Positions 1,037 through 5,972 of a stretch of DNA of 6,830 nt are shown in pieces. The notes under the pieces were generated by a model that ran no database searches, was not told the origin of the DNA, and saw only the letters and a program-made list of their open reading frames with translations. Position 1 is the stretch's first letter; each line of letters opens with the position of its first letter. The stretch is from a virus. Its lineage: Duplodnaviria; Heunggongvirae; Uroviricota; Caudoviricetes. Position numbers and translations under genes: made by a program. Where the stretch lies: IMG/VR virus record IMGVR_UViG_2671180805_000011, one strand, 5' to 3'.

Positions 1037-1123
1037 CTAACAGTCTGGCGTTTTCTTTTTCAGCAACGGGAAAGCAACAACCACCACACCCGCCACCAGC
1101 ACACCGTCAGCCAGCACTGACAT
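1037..1123 (-). CDS. Candidate 28-aa hydrophobic micropeptide (MSVLADGVLVAGVVVVAFPLLKKKTPDC)
   Basis: My own translation of the minus strand; below the ORF-track size cutoff. Single predicted membrane-like helix followed by KKK; no convincing Shine-Dalgarno. Second identical copy at 5806-5892. Confidence 0.15.
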   Translation of the reverse strand: MSVLADGVLVAGVVVVAFPLLKKKTPDC

Positions 1124-1823: not shown

Positions 1824-2790
1824 ACTTGAGCGAGATATATTAAAAAAAGCAACAGCGTATTTTGCACAGGAGTCGCTGAAAAATACGCGTTAATCGAACA
1901 ATGGCGACAACAATTTCCCATTGAAGCGATGTGTCAGGTATTTGGTGTATCCAGGAGCGGTTATTACAACTGGGTACAGCATGAACCCTCAGACAGAAAA
2001 CAAAGTGATGAGCGGCTAAAACTGGAGATTAAGGTGGCACATATCCGCACTCGCGAAACATATGGAACCCGGCGGCTCCAGACGGAGCTGGCAGAGAATG
2101 GCATCATCGTTGGTCGTGACCGACTGGCACGTCTTCGTAAGGAGCTAAGGCTACGCTGTAAGCAGAAACGCAAGTTCAGAGCGACTACGAACTCGAACCA
2201 CAATCTGCCAGTTGCGCCAAATCTGCTGAACCAGACGTTCGCTCCTACAGCACCAAATCAGGTCTGGGTGGCGGACCTGACGTATGTTGCCACACAGGAG
2301 GGATGGTTGTACCTCGCTGGCATCAAAGATGTTTATACGTGCGAAATTGTCGGCTACGCCATGGGAGAGCGCATGACAAAAGAGCTGACAGGTAAAGCCC
2401 TGTTTATGGCGCTCAGGAGCCAGCGCCCACCTGCCGGGCTAATCCACCACTCTGATCGAGGTTCACAGTACTGCGCATACGATTACCGGGTCATACAGGA
2501 GCAGTCTGGTCTGAAAACATCAATGTCGCGTAAAGGTAACTGTTACGACAACGCTCCGATGGAAAGCTTCTGGGGAACGCTGAAAAATGAGAGCCTGAGC
2601 CACTATCGTTTTAATAACCGGGATGAAGCCATCTCAGTAATACGGGAATACATTGAGATTTTCTACAATCGTCAGCGTCGTCACTCTCGTCTGGGGAATA
2701 TCTCCCCGGCAGCCTTCAGGGAAAAATATCATCAGATGGCTGCTTAAAAAAAGAACAAATGGTAGTGTCCGCTATTGCCAGTACACCTCA
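1824..2790 (+). mobile_element. 5'-truncated IS3-family insertion sequence (lacks left inverted repeat and most of orfA)
   Basis: Retains orfA C-terminus (...ELERDILKKATAYFAQESLKNTR), slippery run A-AAA-AAA at 1842-1848 for -1 frameshifting, complete OrfB and the right terminal repeat 2758-2790. Only ~967 bp versus ~1.2-1.3 kb for intact family members. Confidence 0.8.
1929..2747 (+). CDS. IS3-family transposase OrfB (DDE integrase catalytic domain)
   Basis: 272-aa ORF with the DDE signature contexts WVADLTY, HSDRGSQY and NAPMESFWGTLKNE; the -1 frame is open from 1830 (KKSNSVFCTGVAEKYALIEQWRQQFPIEAM...), as expected for an OrfAB fusion. Confidence 0.9.
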   Translation: MCQVFGVSRSGYYNWVQHEPSDRKQSDERLKLEIKVAHIRTRETYGTRRLQTELAENGIIVGRDRLARLRKELRLRCKQKRKFRATTNSNHNLPVAPNLLNQTFAPTAPNQVWVADLTYVATQEGWLYLAGIKDVYTCEIVGYAMGERMTKELTGKALFMALRSQRPPAGLIHHSDRGSQYCAYDYRVIQEQSGLKTSMSRKGNCYDNAPMESFWGTLKNESLSHYRFNNRDEAISVIREYIEIFYNRQRRHSRLGNISPAAFREKYHQMAA

Positions 2791-2996
2791 GGATAGCGGT
2801 CATGTGATGCCGGTTTCCCGGTAACTCAGCACCGGTATCTGAGTCAACGTTTTCTCTACTGGGTCATTTCCGATACGCCCTGCCTGCTGACAGGCTTTCA
2901 TCACATCTGAAAATATAGCACCCTGACTGATACTGTAGTACCTAAGGTTCCAGAAACTGTGATGTATCCGGCACAGAAAAGCCCCTCCGGAGAGGG

Positions 2997-3200
2997 CTGG
3001 AGAGTGGCGCTATGTGCCATTGCATGATGCCGGGTGCCTCCCGGTGAATTCAGTACCAGCACCTGAATCCGCGATTATCCCATATACCTACTCGCTGATT
3101 GCCCCTCCGCACAGGGGGATTCACCATGCCAGTTTCTTTTAACAAACTCCCCGCAAAACAGACAACTGTCAACCGTCTGAATTGTGAGACATTTAAAAAA
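2997..3200. repeat. Third, slightly diverged copy of the conserved ~200-bp segment
   Basis: Aligns with 807-1012 and 5576-5781 with a handful of substitutions (for example catgatgcc versus catggtgcc). Here it directly follows the argO terminator with no insert. Confidence 0.85.
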
Positions 3201-3220
3201 AAGGCCCGCAAAAGCGAGCC
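3195..3220 (-). terminator. Rho-independent terminator downstream of the tRNA cluster
   Basis: Minus strand GGCUCGC-UUUU-GCGGGCC followed by eight U (plus-strand A-run 3195-3202). Confidence 0.5.
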
Positions 3221-3234
3221 AGGGAAAATAAGTG

Positions 3235-3311
3235 TGGCGCGTTGTACTGGATTCGAACCAGTGACCGATTGCTTAGAAGGCAATTGCTCTGTCCGGCTGA
3301 GCTAACAACGC
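3235..3311 (-). tRNA. argO: tRNA-Arg (anticodon UCU)
   Basis: 77 nt; perfect acceptor GCGTTGT/ACAACGC, anticodon loop CUUCUAA, T-loop TTCGAAT, CCA encoded. Confidence 0.85.
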
Positions 3312-3324
3312 ATGATGCAGATAA

Positions 3325-3401
3325 TGGACCGCCATCGGGGACTTGAACCCCGCGCAGCCAGCTTCGAAGGCTGGCGCTCTTTCCTGATGAGCTAATGGCG
3401 G
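3325..3401 (-). tRNA. argN: tRNA-Arg (anticodon UCG)
   Basis: 77 nt; acceptor CCGCCAT/ATGGCGG, D-arm GCTC/GAGC, anticodon loop CUUCGAA, T-arm CGGGG-TTCAAGT-CCCCG, CCA encoded. Confidence 0.85.
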
Positions 3402-3408
3402 TATGTGA

Positions 3409-3484
3409 TGGTGGCCCTTGCTGGATTTGAACCAGCGACCTGGCGATTATGAGTCGCTCGCTCTCACCACTGAGCTAAAGGGCC
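3409..3484 (-). tRNA. ileZ: tRNA-Ile2 type (anticodon CAU, presumably lysidine-modified)
   Basis: 76 nt cloverleaf with CCA; closely resembles the E. coli ileX sequence as I recall it. Anticodon CAU alone cannot exclude tRNA-Met. Confidence 0.75.
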
Positions 3485-3524
3485 GGGAGCCGCATAATAA
3501 CGACGCGTAATTAATTCTTCAATA

Positions 3525-4583
3525 TCATCCGTTCTGGCTGACTAAATCCTGTACTTCCCGAACCGTCTGCTCAAAACGTTCAGTCTCCAGCTCAACGCCA
3601 ATTGCACGACGCCCGAGCGCCAGTGCCGCTTTCACTGTCGAACCCAACCCCATGAAAAAATCTGCAATCAGGTCACCCGGACGACTGCTAGCGCTGATTA
3701 TCTGCTGCAGCATTTCTGCCGGTTTTTCGCACGGATGTTTCCCGGGATAGAACTGCACCGGTTTATGCGTCCACACATCGGTATACGGCACCTGCACCGT
3801 CACGCCAAAATACCGCCGCAGATGTTTATATTCACTCAGCAGCTCCGCATACTGCCGGTTCAGTGAGGTATACGTATCCACCAGCTGGTGGTGGAGCTTT
3901 TCCAGTTCACCACGCCGATGCTTCTCTTCTGCCACCCGGGCAAACAGCGCCTGTAATTTCAGATAATCGCTTTCATTCGGCAACTGCCACTGACCGGCAC
4001 TGAACCAGTGCGACACCATGTTTTTCTTTCCTGTGGCATCTGCAATCTGTTTTGCCGTTATCCCCAGGGCAGCTCGCGCATCACGAAAGTAAGAAATCAG
4101 CGGGGCCATCACATGCTGTTTCAGTGCACTGCCCTTCGCCGCATACCCGGCATCTTTCGGACGATACGGCCCCTGATAATGTTCCGCGAACAGAATGCGC
4201 TCTGTGGCGGGGAAATACGCCCGCAGGCTTTCCTTGTTGCATCCGTTCCAGCGTCCGGACGGCTTCGCCCAGATAATATGGTTCAGCACACTGAAGCGTT
4301 CACGCATCATGATTTCGATATCAGATGCCAGGCGATGACCACAGAACAGGTAAAGACTTCCGGCAGGTTTCAGCACCCGCCAGAACTGCGCCAGACACTG
4401 GTCCAGCCACTTCAGGTAATCATCGTCGCCCTTCCACTGGTTATCCCAGCCCTCAGGCTTCACTTTAAAGTACGGCGGGTCCGTGACTATCAGGTCAACA
4501 GAATTTTCGGGTAACGACCGGATAAATTCCAGGCAGTCGGCGTTGATTAACTCACAACTGGATATTTTTACAGTATTAAGCAT
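3525..4583 (-). CDS. DNA methyltransferase (N6-adenine or N4-cytosine, beta-class motif order)
   Basis: 352-aa ORF; N-terminal catalytic motif IV ...SVDLIVTDPPY... and C-terminal AdoMet motif I DFFMGLGS. No adjacent restriction endonuclease, so likely an orphan prophage methylase. Confidence 0.85.
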   Translation of the reverse strand: MLNTVKISSCELINADCLEFIRSLPENSVDLIVTDPPYFKVKPEGWDNQWKGDDDYLKWLDQCLAQFWRVLKPAGSLYLFCGHRLASDIEIMMRERFSVLNHIIWAKPSGRWNGCNKESLRAYFPATERILFAEHYQGPYRPKDAGYAAKGSALKQHVMAPLISYFRDARAALGITAKQIADATGKKNMVSHWFSAGQWQLPNESDYLKLQALFARVAEEKHRRGELEKLHHQLVDTYTSLNRQYAELLSEYKHLRRYFGVTVQVPYTDVWTHKPVQFYPGKHPCEKPAEMLQQIISASSRPGDLIADFFMGLGSTVKAALALGRRAIGVELETERFEQTVREVQDLVSQNG

Positions 4584-4675
4584 GGATCATTAAGCCTGTC
4601 TCTGATAGGCTCATTCTGCTTTTGCGCAAAGCAGTGGGCCTGAGGTTTGCTTGTGAACCCAACGCATGAGCAGAT

Positions 4676-4706
4676 GGCTGGTGGGTGCCCCTAACACCCA
4701 CCAGCC
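4676..4706. promoter_or_regulatory. Perfect 12-bp inverted repeat GGCTGGTGGGTG-N7-CACCCACCAGCC in the methylase leader
   Basis: Seen directly; no adjoining U-tract on either strand, so not a simple terminator. A second smaller hairpin lies at 4616-4634 (CTGCTTT-TGCGC-AAAGCAG). Confidence 0.4.
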
Positions 4707-4723
4707 GCCCATTTACCACAAAT

Positions 4724-4747
4724 AAAAAAGCCTTCACTGCGGAAGGC
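4724..4747 (-). terminator. Hairpin plus U-tract overlapping the stop codon of the small HTH gene
   Basis: Minus strand GCCUUC-CGCAGU-GAAGGC followed by UUUUUUAUUU. Confidence 0.45.
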
Positions 4748-4931
4748 GTCTGTAACAACCGAACTGATAGTCTGCCAGACCCGCCATAACCAGCTGGGTC
4801 AGTATTAACTGGCAGCGTTCGCGTGAAAGGTAAGTATTCTGCGCTATCTCCCCGACTGTCGCCGGTTCGGTAACGCTTAATTCATTAAACACCACTCTGG
4901 CGGTTTCTGTCATATCCTGCTGTTTTAGCAT
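4734..4931 (-). CDS. Small predicted helix-turn-helix DNA-binding protein (65 aa)
   Basis: ORF track; AAGGAAAAG Shine-Dalgarno before ATG; segment VGEIAQNTYLSRERCQLILTQLVMAGL looks like a helix-turn-helix; immediately upstream of the methylase in the same orientation. Confidence 0.5.
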   Translation of the reverse strand: MLKQQDMTETARVVFNELSVTEPATVGEIAQNTYLSRERCQLILTQLVMAGLADYQFGCYRRLPQ

Positions 4932-5049
4932 GTCTTTTCCTTTTCCGGTTAACGTGACACACCAATAACTCTTGTCGAAAAAGCCAGCAAGCTGAAAGAC
5001 AGGTATTCACCGCCACCAGCGCGTTTACTGTACTGACGCGATTTCAGTC

Positions 5050-5075
5050 ATAAAAAACCCGCTCGGCGGCGGGTT
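5050..5075 (-). terminator. tR'-like terminator of the short late leader transcript
   Basis: Minus strand AACCCGC-CGCCGA-GCGGGUU followed by UUUUUAU; repeated at 6727-6752. Confidence 0.55.
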
Positions 5076-5122
5076 GTAGAAACTCTTCTAACGTCAGGCA
5101 TAAAACGCCCATCGTTATGACG

Positions 5123-5150
5123 AATTTACCACAGATTCCGGAAAAATCAA
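5123..5150 (-). promoter_or_regulatory. Late promoter pR'-like (-35 TTGATT, 16-nt spacer, -10 TAAATT), expected site of Q engagement
   Basis: Hexamers read on the minus strand, starting 5 bp after the Q stop; the TAAATT -10 matches my recollection of lambda pR'. Second copy at 6800-6827 with one nearby SNP. Confidence 0.5.
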
Positions 5151-5155
5151 CCTTG

Positions 5156-5644
5156 TTACCTAGTTACCTTTTTTAACTGCCGCTCAGCCCATGCTTCTTC
5201 AATATCAAACCGGGTCACCAGCGCATCATAAAATTTCTTAACTGTTTTTTCCCATGACGCGCGTGTTATCTGGTTTGTCACCTCGCATATAGCATTAAAT
5301 GCCTCCGTTGATGGTAGTCTTTCATAGCCACGACCACCACAACGCTGGCAGTCTCTGATAACAGGCATACCACGTTTTACCGACTCTTCACGATGAATGG
5401 CGACACCACGCCCACGGCAATCCTTACAGGCGGTGGAAACCTCACCCTTTCCGCCACACTCCGGACAGGCAACTTTTACCACCTCCCTGACTTTTTTCCA
5501 TTCTTCCCAGTAAGACGGATACACACCTTTCGTACACTTTGCCCATACCGGCGGCTTACCATCCGGATACTGGAAGGGCTGGAGAGTGGCGCTATGTGCC
5601 ATTGCATGGTGCCGGGTGCCTCCCGGTGAATTCAGTACCAGCAC
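5156..5644 (-). CDS. Q: Lambda-family late antiterminator Q, probably 5'-chimeric or truncated
   Basis: CxxC motifs (CPECGGKG, CKDCRGRG, CQRCGGRG) and C-terminus ...WEKTVKKFYDALV...KVTR match my recollection of lambda Q (...CRDCHGTGR...GRCKGVGY...WSRTVKPLYDALV...AVTR). The track ORF starts at GTG 5644; first ATG is 5603. Codons upstream of 5577 lie in the repeated conserved segment. Confidence 0.7.
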   Translation of the reverse strand: MLVLNSPGGTRHHAMAHSATLQPFQYPDGKPPVWAKCTKGVYPSYWEEWKKVREVVKVACPECGGKGEVSTACKDCRGRGVAIHREESVKRGMPVIRDCQRCGGRGYERLPSTEAFNAICEVTNQITRASWEKTVKKFYDALVTRFDIEEAWAERQLKKVTR

Positions 5645-5972
5645 CTGAATCCGCGATTATCCCATATACCTACTCGCTGATTGCCCCTCCGCACAGGGGG
5701 ATTCACCATGCCAGTTTCTTTTAACAAACTCCCCGCAAACCAGACAACAGTCAACCGCCTGAATTGTGAAGTATTTAAAAATTTCTCCCGCTAACTGATA
5801 CCCGGCTAACAGTCTGGCGTTTTCTTTTTCAGCAACGGGAAAGCAACAACCACCACACCCGCCACCAGCACACCGTCAGCCAGCACTGACATTATCCGGC
5901 TGCTGCAATGCCATTCACAAAAACAGTAAGCAATCACTTTTTACCGTAACAGGTGATAATCCAGATATGTAT

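Follow-up and report, generated by a model that had tools for sequence, protein, structure and literature searches.

The sequence analysed here (the window) is a stretch of 6,830 nucleotides from a virus of the Caudoviricetes (IMG/VR record IMGVR_UViG_2671180805_000011). Its minus strand is a mosaic of lambdoid-prophage late regions, into which a methyltransferase cassette has been inserted. The order on this strand is the antiterminator gene Q, the late promoter pR', the terminator tR', a small open reading frame (ORF), a hairpin, a leader, the methylase gene and the tRNA genes ileZ, argN and argO. All of these elements lie on the minus strand, which is the late-gene sense strand. The leader contains a perfect palindrome. 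The new point, a modest one drawn from sequence comparison, is that this palindrome belongs to a conserved, structured and apparently undescribed leader of M.EcoGII-type genes.

The preliminary description of this DNA had read the cassette as a discrete insertion between tR' and ileZ, and the junction alignment bears this out. The pR'-tR'-ileZ region is duplicated at 6640–6830, and the second copy carries nothing between tR' and ileZ (33 nt from the end of tR' to ileZ). The flanks of the cassette match this empty copy at 94% (3381–3524 against 6586–6729) and 96% (5043–5153 against 6720–6830). The inserted segment was assigned to 3525–5042 (1,518 bp) because the alignment places the upstream break directly after the U-tract of tR' (...TTTTTTAT^) and the downstream break 3 nt past the methylase stop codon. 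The ends of the segment form an imperfect 10-bp direct repeat. The upstream boundary, tR', is an intrinsic terminator at 5046–5075 (terminator scan; stem 5056–5075, U-tract to 5046, −11.2 kcal/mol) with a counterpart in the empty copy at 6723–6752. The downstream boundary is ileZ at 3409–3484, a tRNA with a CAT anticodon (tRNA-Met CAT in ARAGORN, tRNA in Rfam, tRNA-Ile by its RefSeq name); argN and argO lie beyond it.

Inside the segment, in the direction of transcription, lie a conserved promoter-like element (U-box) at 4954–4991, identified by sequence conservation upstream of the small gene, and the small ORF of 65 amino acids (aa) at 4734–4931. A terminator-like hairpin follows at 4720–4747 (terminator scan; stem GCCTTC/GAAGGC at 4730–4747, then TTTTTTATTT; −8.9 kcal/mol) and starts within the stop codon of the small ORF. 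The structured leader occupies 4581–4719, and the methyltransferase ORF of 352 aa 3525–4583. The Q ORF (Pfam Antiterm, E = 1.5e-31) is found at 5156–5644. Directly downstream of it is a putative pR' at 5123–5150, recognised from its −35 (TTGATT, 5145–5150) and −10 (TAAATT, 5123–5128) sequences and followed by a short leader with a lambda-like AACGATGGG pause motif. No restriction gene adjoins the cassette, in line with the preliminary description, and none is expected.

The 352-aa protein matches Pfam N6_N4_Mtase (PF01555; E = 7.9e-42, residues 29–340) and PADLOC MTase_II (E = 4.6e-163). Its translation shows the beta-class motif order, with DPPY at residues 35–38 and FxGxG (FMGLG) at 310–314, and the first assignment as a DPPY amino-methyltransferase stands. 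It is identical to M.EcoGII at 324 of 349 positions (~93%), the reference being Table S1 of the SUPREM paper (PMC11551740), a machine-read text in which a few mismatches may be reading errors. Compared with M.EcoGII, the window enzyme has ~25 substitutions and 3 extra C-terminal residues. A weak HTH_3 match at residues 167–195 fits the helical target-recognition domain with a helix-turn-helix (HTH) described for M.EcoGII (PMC11551740). The cassette is almost certainly of the M.EcoGII type. By its sequence, the protein is a beta-class non-specific N6-adenine methyltransferase of the M.EcoGI/M.EcoGII type, the non-specificity being taken from the literature on its relatives.

M.EcoGII methylates adenine whatever the surrounding sequence (Murray et al. 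2018, PMC5778455), which for this family answers the question of a target motif that had been raised at first. M.EcoGI and M.EcoGII are twin prophage enzymes of E. coli O104:H4 C227-11. They are silent in the normally growing lysogen, their constitutive production is harmful, and the authors propose that they are switched on at induction (PMC5778455). Both in vivo and in vitro, M.EcoGII shows full activity by itself (PMC5778455), and it can also methylate RNA (PMC5778455; PMC11551740). The enzyme is widely used in the laboratory and is a clear example of a phage anti-restriction methylase.

Window positions 1825–5574 are 99.9–100% identical to Shigella sonnei chromosomes (e.g. HE616528); the inserted segment is 100% identical to S. 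sonnei chromosomes, and the exact methylase protein is found there too. Of 5,426 complete E. coli genomes, 2,010 contain at least 80% of a 1.76-kb query (window 3400–5160), frequently more than once. The cassette is also carried by Stx2a, Stx2d and Stx2e phages, by phiP27 and by phage 1720a-02. The latter was named by Murray et al. (PMC5778455) as the carrier of a very similar enzyme, and its cassette shows 94.8% DNA identity to that of the window. In E. coli TOE17, the order is Q, small ORF, methylase, tRNAs and then holin and lysozyme; in phiP27, it is Q, small ORF, methylase, tRNAs, stx2e and holin. Between Q and the tRNAs, the records of relatives list a 'DNA methyltransferase' and a 'hypothetical protein / TrmB family transcriptional regulator'. 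In ~60 Enterobacterales loci, the cassette almost always follows a tR'-like terminator. Going by these matches, the cassette and its enzyme class are already known: they are very common in E. coli and Shigella prophages, annotated, and the enzyme is biochemically characterised.

The small ORF had been described as encoding an HTH protein, and its predicted fold agrees. The 65-aa protein belongs to PHROG 331 (E = 1.4e-37) and carries the NCBI name 'TrmB family transcriptional regulator'. Pfam matches to TrmB, MarR and DprA_WH were all below threshold, an NCBIfam search gave no match, and a profile search against PDB sequences returned nothing significant. The AlphaFold2 model has a mean confidence score (pLDDT) of 90.7 and comprises H1 (4–16), S1, H2 (26–33), H3 (37–49) and a wing (53–62). 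The nearest solved folds are the DNA-binding domains of MarR, IclR and OhrR and the N-terminal winged-helix domains of S-adenosylmethionine (SAM)-dependent methyltransferases. On this model, the protein is confidently predicted to be a stand-alone winged helix with a DNA-binding-like fold. It is slightly acidic (6 basic and 7 acidic residues in the sequence), and only two of its cysteines are conserved (C40 and C59).

The family is narrow. It comprises 334 clusters at 90% identity, all from Enterobacterales; at 50% identity, no more than 85 clusters were found among 1.84 billion representatives, and nearly all of these proteins have 22–114 aa. No fusion to the methylase (Rosetta-stone) was found among these representatives. 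Of 77 testable species-representative loci of GTDB, 61 have the small gene ahead of the methylase, with 39–98% protein identity, and these loci span Escherichia to Xenorhabdus, Photorhabdus, Providencia and Morganella. About one fifth of the loci carry the methylase without the small gene, and methylase identity there (75–79%) is similar to that of loci with it.

Just past the tR'-like terminator, essentially all of the ~60 loci with the small gene, from Escherichia to Xenorhabdus, carry the U-box: CTTGCTG, 13 variable nt and GAGTTAYnTGTRTGTCA, with fixed spacing. It is also present in a Stx2c phage. None was seen in the inspected sequence upstream of the methylase in 16 loci lacking the small gene. 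A hairpin in the Xenorhabdus U-box is not consistently compensated, and a promoter-like DNA element was therefore preferred. A CII-type TTGC-N6-TTGC site in the U-box was dropped, as it is not conserved. The U-box could be an autonomous promoter or a protein-binding site of the small-gene module. The winged-helix protein most likely represents an accessory and separable module that brings its own conserved element upstream.

The palindrome at 4676–4706 (repeat search and fold) is a perfect 12-bp inverted repeat, GGCTGGTGGGTG/CACCCACCAGCC, with arms at 4676–4687 and 4695–4706 and a 7-nt loop. Such a repeat was contained in none of 200 dinucleotide-preserving shuffles, even when 3 mismatches were permitted. 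As RNA, it folds with −29.1 kcal/mol (z = −5.8). It is not the generic repeat that it might have been: it occurs once per locus, at the methylase junction, and in viral contigs with a 21-nt motif of the leader, the methylase lies directly downstream in 77 of 79 testable cases.

The manner in which the palindrome varies points to RNA. Departures from Watson-Crick pairing on the sense strand are nearly always G.U in viral contigs (26 G.U, one other; 99.7% of the helix paired), and the 77 distinct leaders pooled give 35 G.U and 5 A.C. As G.U pairs are mismatches on the other strand or in duplex DNA, this one-strand pattern argues for an RNA helix, designated P1. Providencia has the same hairpin with another sequence (GACTGTAAAGGTG/CACCCTTACAGTC). 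The sequence also differs in Xenorhabdus and Photorhabdus, where the fourth pair is U-A, G-C, A-U or G.U, the loop is 6–10 nt long and GGUGAA pairs with UUCRCC, lengthening the hairpin. Outside the E. coli group, the arms are asymmetric, with a bulge in the 3' arm. The 5' arm is near-invariant, and the 3' arm drifts.

P1 is part of a larger structure. The leader is ~135 nt long and ends at the methylase ATG. In 42 loci, its mean pairwise identity is 82.5%, compared with 70.8% for the methylase coding sequence of the same loci; the gap between the two genes is more conserved than either gene. The structure was defined by hand on an alignment of the 42 leaders, followed by a covariance model (R1) and a mutual-information scan. 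Besides P1, it contains the helices P0 (4631–4635/4707–4711, UGGGC/GCCCA), P2 (4646–4651/4669–4674, UUCGCU/AGCGAA), P3 (4616–4634, GCUUU/AAAGC) and P4 (4591–4613, UGAGC/GCUUA). The minimum free energy of the window leader is −60.5 kcal/mol (z = −3.8). Across the 42 leaders, 94.5% of the alignment cells are paired, compared with 30–45% when the partner is slid. Double changes occurred in 7 pairs (reached by 2 of 500 shuffles) and 26 cells (0 of 500). P2 and P4 covary, and a P2 pair (49–75) came top in the unbiased mutual-information scan (CG 21, AU 8, UA 4, UG 3). The same pair was UA 20, CG 8 and AU 5 in 35 distinct leaders from viral contigs, a set that is only partly independent, having been picked by an exact 21-nt P0/P1 match and aligned with the model of the first set.

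Of 83 sources searched with the covariance model, 47 have the leader: the window, two annotated records and 44 of 80 species-representative loci. Each time there is exactly one copy per locus, it lies on the sense strand, and the methylase ATG marks its end. In viral contigs, there were 78 full-length, high-scoring matches with the same placement; of two further hits, one is cut at a contig end and the other is weak. The leader was kept in 14 loci without the small gene. A hairpin equivalent to 4730–4747 precedes the leader elsewhere, including loci without the small gene, with U-runs of varying quality. No family of Rfam 15 matches the leader or the palindrome in the window and five diverse loci. 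The lone match on the leader, on the opposite strand, was at chance level (P26, 24 bits with a gathering score of 36, E = 0.1). In a limited literature search, we found no description of an M.EcoGII-type leader or of the winged-helix module with its upstream element.

Several other structures and readings were tried. RNAalifold on the raw MAFFT alignment recovered only P0 and part of P1, because the distal arm of P1 was mis-registered there, and was replaced. An outer P3 stem (GGCCCAC/GTGAGCC) and a P4 stem (ATCAG/CTGAT) were dropped because a C-A mismatch is conserved and T-to-C changes go uncompensated; GAGC/GCTT is the better fit. A coding leader, or translational coupling by an upstream ORF, was rejected: in most genera, a TAG in the P1 loop ends the frame or indels shift it, and no ORF through the leader is conserved in frame across loci. 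In E. coli and Shigella only, a 60-codon ORF (4576–4758, minus strand) spans the leader, and its TAA stop overlaps the methylase start (ATGCTTAA). The sequence ahead of the methylase ATG contains no Shine-Dalgarno sequence. Long-form leaders all have a GATC (Dam) site at −7 to −4 of this ATG (CTGATCyATG; window 4584–4590, minus strand); short-form leaders have TCGAT in its place.

All leaders start with a conserved GTGRAAATGG motif. Its possible roles are those of a promoter, of a sigma-dependent pause element or simply, as in short-form leaders, of a part of an extended P1 hairpin. In the window, the first 10 nt of the leader (TGTGGTAAAT, 4711–4720, minus strand) are identical to the extended −10 region of pR' (5124–5133, minus strand).

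Taken as a whole, P1 is probably a helix of the RNA rather than an operator. Control of translation or stability by the leader is a more tentative proposal, to which we give slightly less than even chances. Going further, the leader might be an undescribed cis-regulatory RNA motif for M.EcoGII-type genes across Enterobacterales that gates translation of the toxic methylase, with the winged-helix protein as a possible trans partner (a Com-like RNA-binding activator or a PNB-2-like substrate-directing subunit); we regard this extension as possible but doubtful.

For the whole locus, we lean towards a late-region, Q-dependent, terminator-insulated anti-restriction cassette of lambdoid phages with a cis-acting RNA leader. 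This is the simplest model because the cassette directly follows a tR'-type terminator and contains a second hairpin, and because silence in the lysogen and toxicity have been published for the relatives. In the lysogen, transcripts from pR' would stop at tR', and the second terminator-like hairpin, after the small gene, would stop leakage; with two terminators, the toxic methylase would be off. After induction, Q-modified RNA polymerase would pass both terminators and transcribe the small gene, leader, methylase, tRNAs and lysis genes. The methylase would then modify adenines of the replicating phage DNA in any context and shield the progeny from adenine-sensitive restriction enzymes. The leader may act in cis on translation, mRNA stability or both, and so set the enzyme dose. 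An anti-restriction module expressed with the late genes, as first suggested, fits the position of the cassette as well as the published silence and non-specificity of M.EcoGI and M.EcoGII (PMC5778455).

The enzyme identity, its position, the insertion boundaries, the fold of the small protein and the conservation and covariation of the leader were obtained directly in this analysis. Non-specificity, lysogen silence and toxicity come from the literature, and we infer Q-dependence, terminator function and a post-transcriptional role of the leader. How phages silence and then dose this harmful enzyme is not described in the literature found. Across Enterobacterales, the natural gene is accompanied by a folded leader that is strongly conserved and by extra terminators; in most cases there is also a small winged-helix gene with a conserved upstream element. 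All of these are candidate regulatory elements that can be tested.

A number of observations weigh against this model. Neither P0 nor P3 shows informative variation, and the pairing AUGGGCG/CGCUCAU is a competitor of P0. Significance is overstated by the shuffle tests, since the sequences are related to one another. A promoter or a sigma-dependent pause element may lie in TGTGGTAAAT, and the methylase would then have a promoter of its own. In two viral contigs (L105 and L143), the small gene, terminator and P1 are kept and the methylase is replaced by AT-rich DNA with an unrelated ORF directly after P1; similarity to Stx2c phages also breaks at about window position 4714. Hence, P1 lies at a mosaic module junction and is not exclusively linked to the methylase. 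Its invariant 5' arm may be constrained as a Chi site instead of by an RNA function. Q-dependence and terminator function are deduced from position. Moreover, the window Q is cut at 5573 by a junction with another module, so that this copy would need Q in trans or is dead. The Q of S. sonnei has 273 aa; identity to the window ends at 5574, where a module copy 100% identical to 804–1103 begins. The truncation (within window 5541–5644) leaves an ORF of 162 aa, the first ~22 residues of which come from the repeat.

Two other explanations are unlikely but fare best among the alternatives. The first makes the winged-helix protein a partner subunit that alters the substrate choice or activity of the methylase (e.g. 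DNA or RNA), like PNB-2. An MT-A70 enzyme of an Stx phage does form a 1:1 complex with a small winged-HTH protein encoded upstream and is redirected to 16S rRNA (PMC10810198), and M.EcoGII is able to methylate RNA. The adjacency of the genes is conserved across Enterobacterales, the small protein is slightly acidic, and methyltransferase winged-helix domains are among its top fold matches. However, M.EcoGII needs no partner for full activity (PMC5778455), the loci lacking the small gene carry methylases of similar identity, no fused protein turned up among the 1.84 billion representatives, and PNB-2 and its methylase come from other families than the cassette proteins.

The second explanation, to which we likewise assign a low probability, takes P1 as a further terminator-type block or as a stable hairpin that protects an end after cleavage of the late transcript. 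The stem is very stable (−29 kcal/mol), a CUUUU follows the equivalent GC-rich hairpin in many Xenorhabdus loci, and a terminator between the small gene and the methylase is a recurring theme. Yet no U-tract follows P1 in the window or in any long-form leader (AUCUGCUCAUG or AUUCGCUCAUG stands there), and the conserved downstream helices P2–P4 would be left unexplained. Classic RNase III substrates are generally longer than the 12-bp stem of P1.

The preliminary description had likened the layout to controller-protein regulated modification genes, with the palindrome as a possible operator or RNA switch. In such a circuit, the winged-helix protein would bind the double-stranded palindrome and repress or time transcription of the methylase, perhaps from a promoter at TGTGGTAAAT upstream of P1. 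The protein has a DNA-binding-type fold whose recognition helix contains Arg/Gln and whose wing contains Arg-Arg, the small gene lies directly upstream of the methylase in most loci (61/77), and the palindrome is perfect in E. coli and Shigella. A −10-like TGnTAAAT can be read 7 nt upstream of P1, and the promoter-like U-box would permit Q-independent production of the small protein. The operator part of this claim is not supported. The protein is not an HTH_3 (Xre-type) C-protein and no restriction gene is present; the palindrome lies past the end of the small gene, inside the methylase leader; and the 14 loci without that gene have the leader intact, P1 included. The G.U variation is confined to one strand, and the asymmetric arms, bulged 3' arm and loop of 6–10 nt make a poor fit to a dimeric operator in double-stranded DNA. 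In addition, the small protein of a Stx2c phage is only 50% identical and has other recognition-helix residues, but its P1 5' arm is near-identical. We consider a controller circuit quite improbable.

Finally, the palindrome might matter as DNA, as a back-to-back Chi pair that stops RecBCD from either side and forms a recombination hotspot, with the RNA hairpin as a by-product. The GCTGGTGG octamer is present in both arms (4677–4684, plus strand; 4698–4705, minus strand), and the 6.8 kb contain seven octamers where 0.26 would be expected, a number that none of 200 shuffles reached; the 1.5-kb cassette has five of the seven. Over 80 loci, the octamers are biased towards the late sense (217 to 51 in flanks, 95 to 21 in cassettes), the 5' arm with the sense Chi is the near-invariant one, and mosaic breakpoints adjoin P1. 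This is nevertheless very unlikely to be the main role of the palindrome, as compensatory changes maintain the hairpin in Providencia and in many Xenorhabdus loci, which have lost Chi, Chi occupies both arms in the E. coli group only, P2 and P4 covary in a manner unrelated to Chi, and Chi function does not need a hairpin. A Chi constraint may still explain the invariant 5' arm of P1, which is otherwise taken here as one side of an RNA helix.

The remaining Chi octamers of the window are at 1093–1100 (minus), 3878–3885 (minus), 3884–3891 (plus), 5013–5020 (minus) and 5862–5869 (minus). A second, overlapping inverted pair (CCACCAGCTGGTGG) lies inside the methylase coding sequence. Relative to the methylase ATG, the Chi positions −122 and +697 are conserved in the 80 related loci, with a sense bias of ~4:1. 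Chi on the sense strand would be in the orientation expected to stop RecBCD entering from cos.

Further features were noted in the window. A promoter scan of 3400–5700 gave a sole sigma-70-like match, TTGAAG-17-TATTAT at 3494–3522 (minus strand), in the shared flank just upstream of ileZ; it is possibly a Q-independent tRNA promoter, and a similar sequence is also found in the empty copy. Three copies of the small RNA STnc100 (Rfam, 104–132 bits; gathering score 47) lie at 782–971, 2969–3158 and 5541–5740, all on the minus strand. Each is downstream of an argO tRNA, and one spans the Q truncation junction. An IS3-family insertion sequence (IS) at 1825–2795 has an orfB of 272 aa with rve domains (1929–2747) and only the tail of orfA (ORF 1579–1893). 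Its 38-nt end (2758–2795) is repeated at 1–38, and identical IS copies are scattered in S. sonnei loci. An intact 111-aa homologue of the anti-adapter IraM (NCBIfam NF007393, E = 5e-48) is encoded on the opposite strand (421–756, plus); it adjoins the same tRNA/STnc100 block in E. coli TOE17.

Among known systems, restriction-modification systems with C-proteins (e.g. PvuII, Esp1396I, AhdI) are one point of comparison. The cassette shares with them a small HTH-type protein beside a modification gene and a nearby palindrome. However, the protein is a winged helix without an HTH_3 match, no C-box precedes the small gene, and the palindrome, placed after that gene in the methylase leader, behaves as an RNA helix in a leader that persists without the small gene. 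There is no linked restriction gene; the neighbours are Q, tR' and tRNAs, as they are in annotated relatives.

In the com-mom operon of phage Mu, Com is a small protein that remodels an mRNA hairpin and thereby switches on translation of mom, a toxic DNA-modification gene. The cassette resembles it in having a late toxic DNA-modification enzyme, a small ORF ahead and a structured leader whose adjoining start codon is poorly exposed. Com is a zinc finger with four Cys, whereas the window protein is a winged helix with two conserved Cys. Moreover, the window genes do not overlap, and mom does not encode a methyltransferase.

M.EcoPA8orf6770P-PNB-2 is a two-subunit 16S rRNA methyltransferase of an Stx phage (Gong et al. 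2023, PMC10810198). The likeness consists of a prophage methyltransferase, a small winged-HTH gene directly upstream and a terminator between upstream genes. That enzyme belongs to MT-A70, occupies another phage site and needs its partner; the window enzyme belongs to PF01555 and has a relative that is active alone. PNB-2 and the small protein of the window are apparently unrelated: the termini of the PA8 genes, as encoded in the primers, differ from those of the window ORFs. Identity of the cassette with PNB-2/MT-A70 was rejected on account of the different family and locus.

The nearest relatives are M.EcoGI and M.EcoGII. They belong to the same family with the same DPPY...FxGxG order, are orphan genes on lambdoid prophages and have near-identical cassettes in 1720a-02 and Stx2 phages; the difference is that the upstream winged-helix gene and the structured leader are not described for them in the literature found. 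In its placement, the cassette resembles the late-operon morons of lambdoid phages (stx genes, tRNA genes, nanS-p), which occupy the same slot between Q/tR' and the lysis genes on the same strand, vary in presence and absence, and have sharp boundaries at terminators; Q-dependent expression would be expected for both. What sets the window apart from these is its cargo, a DNA methylase with an unusually conserved non-coding leader and possibly an autonomous promoter-like element upstream.

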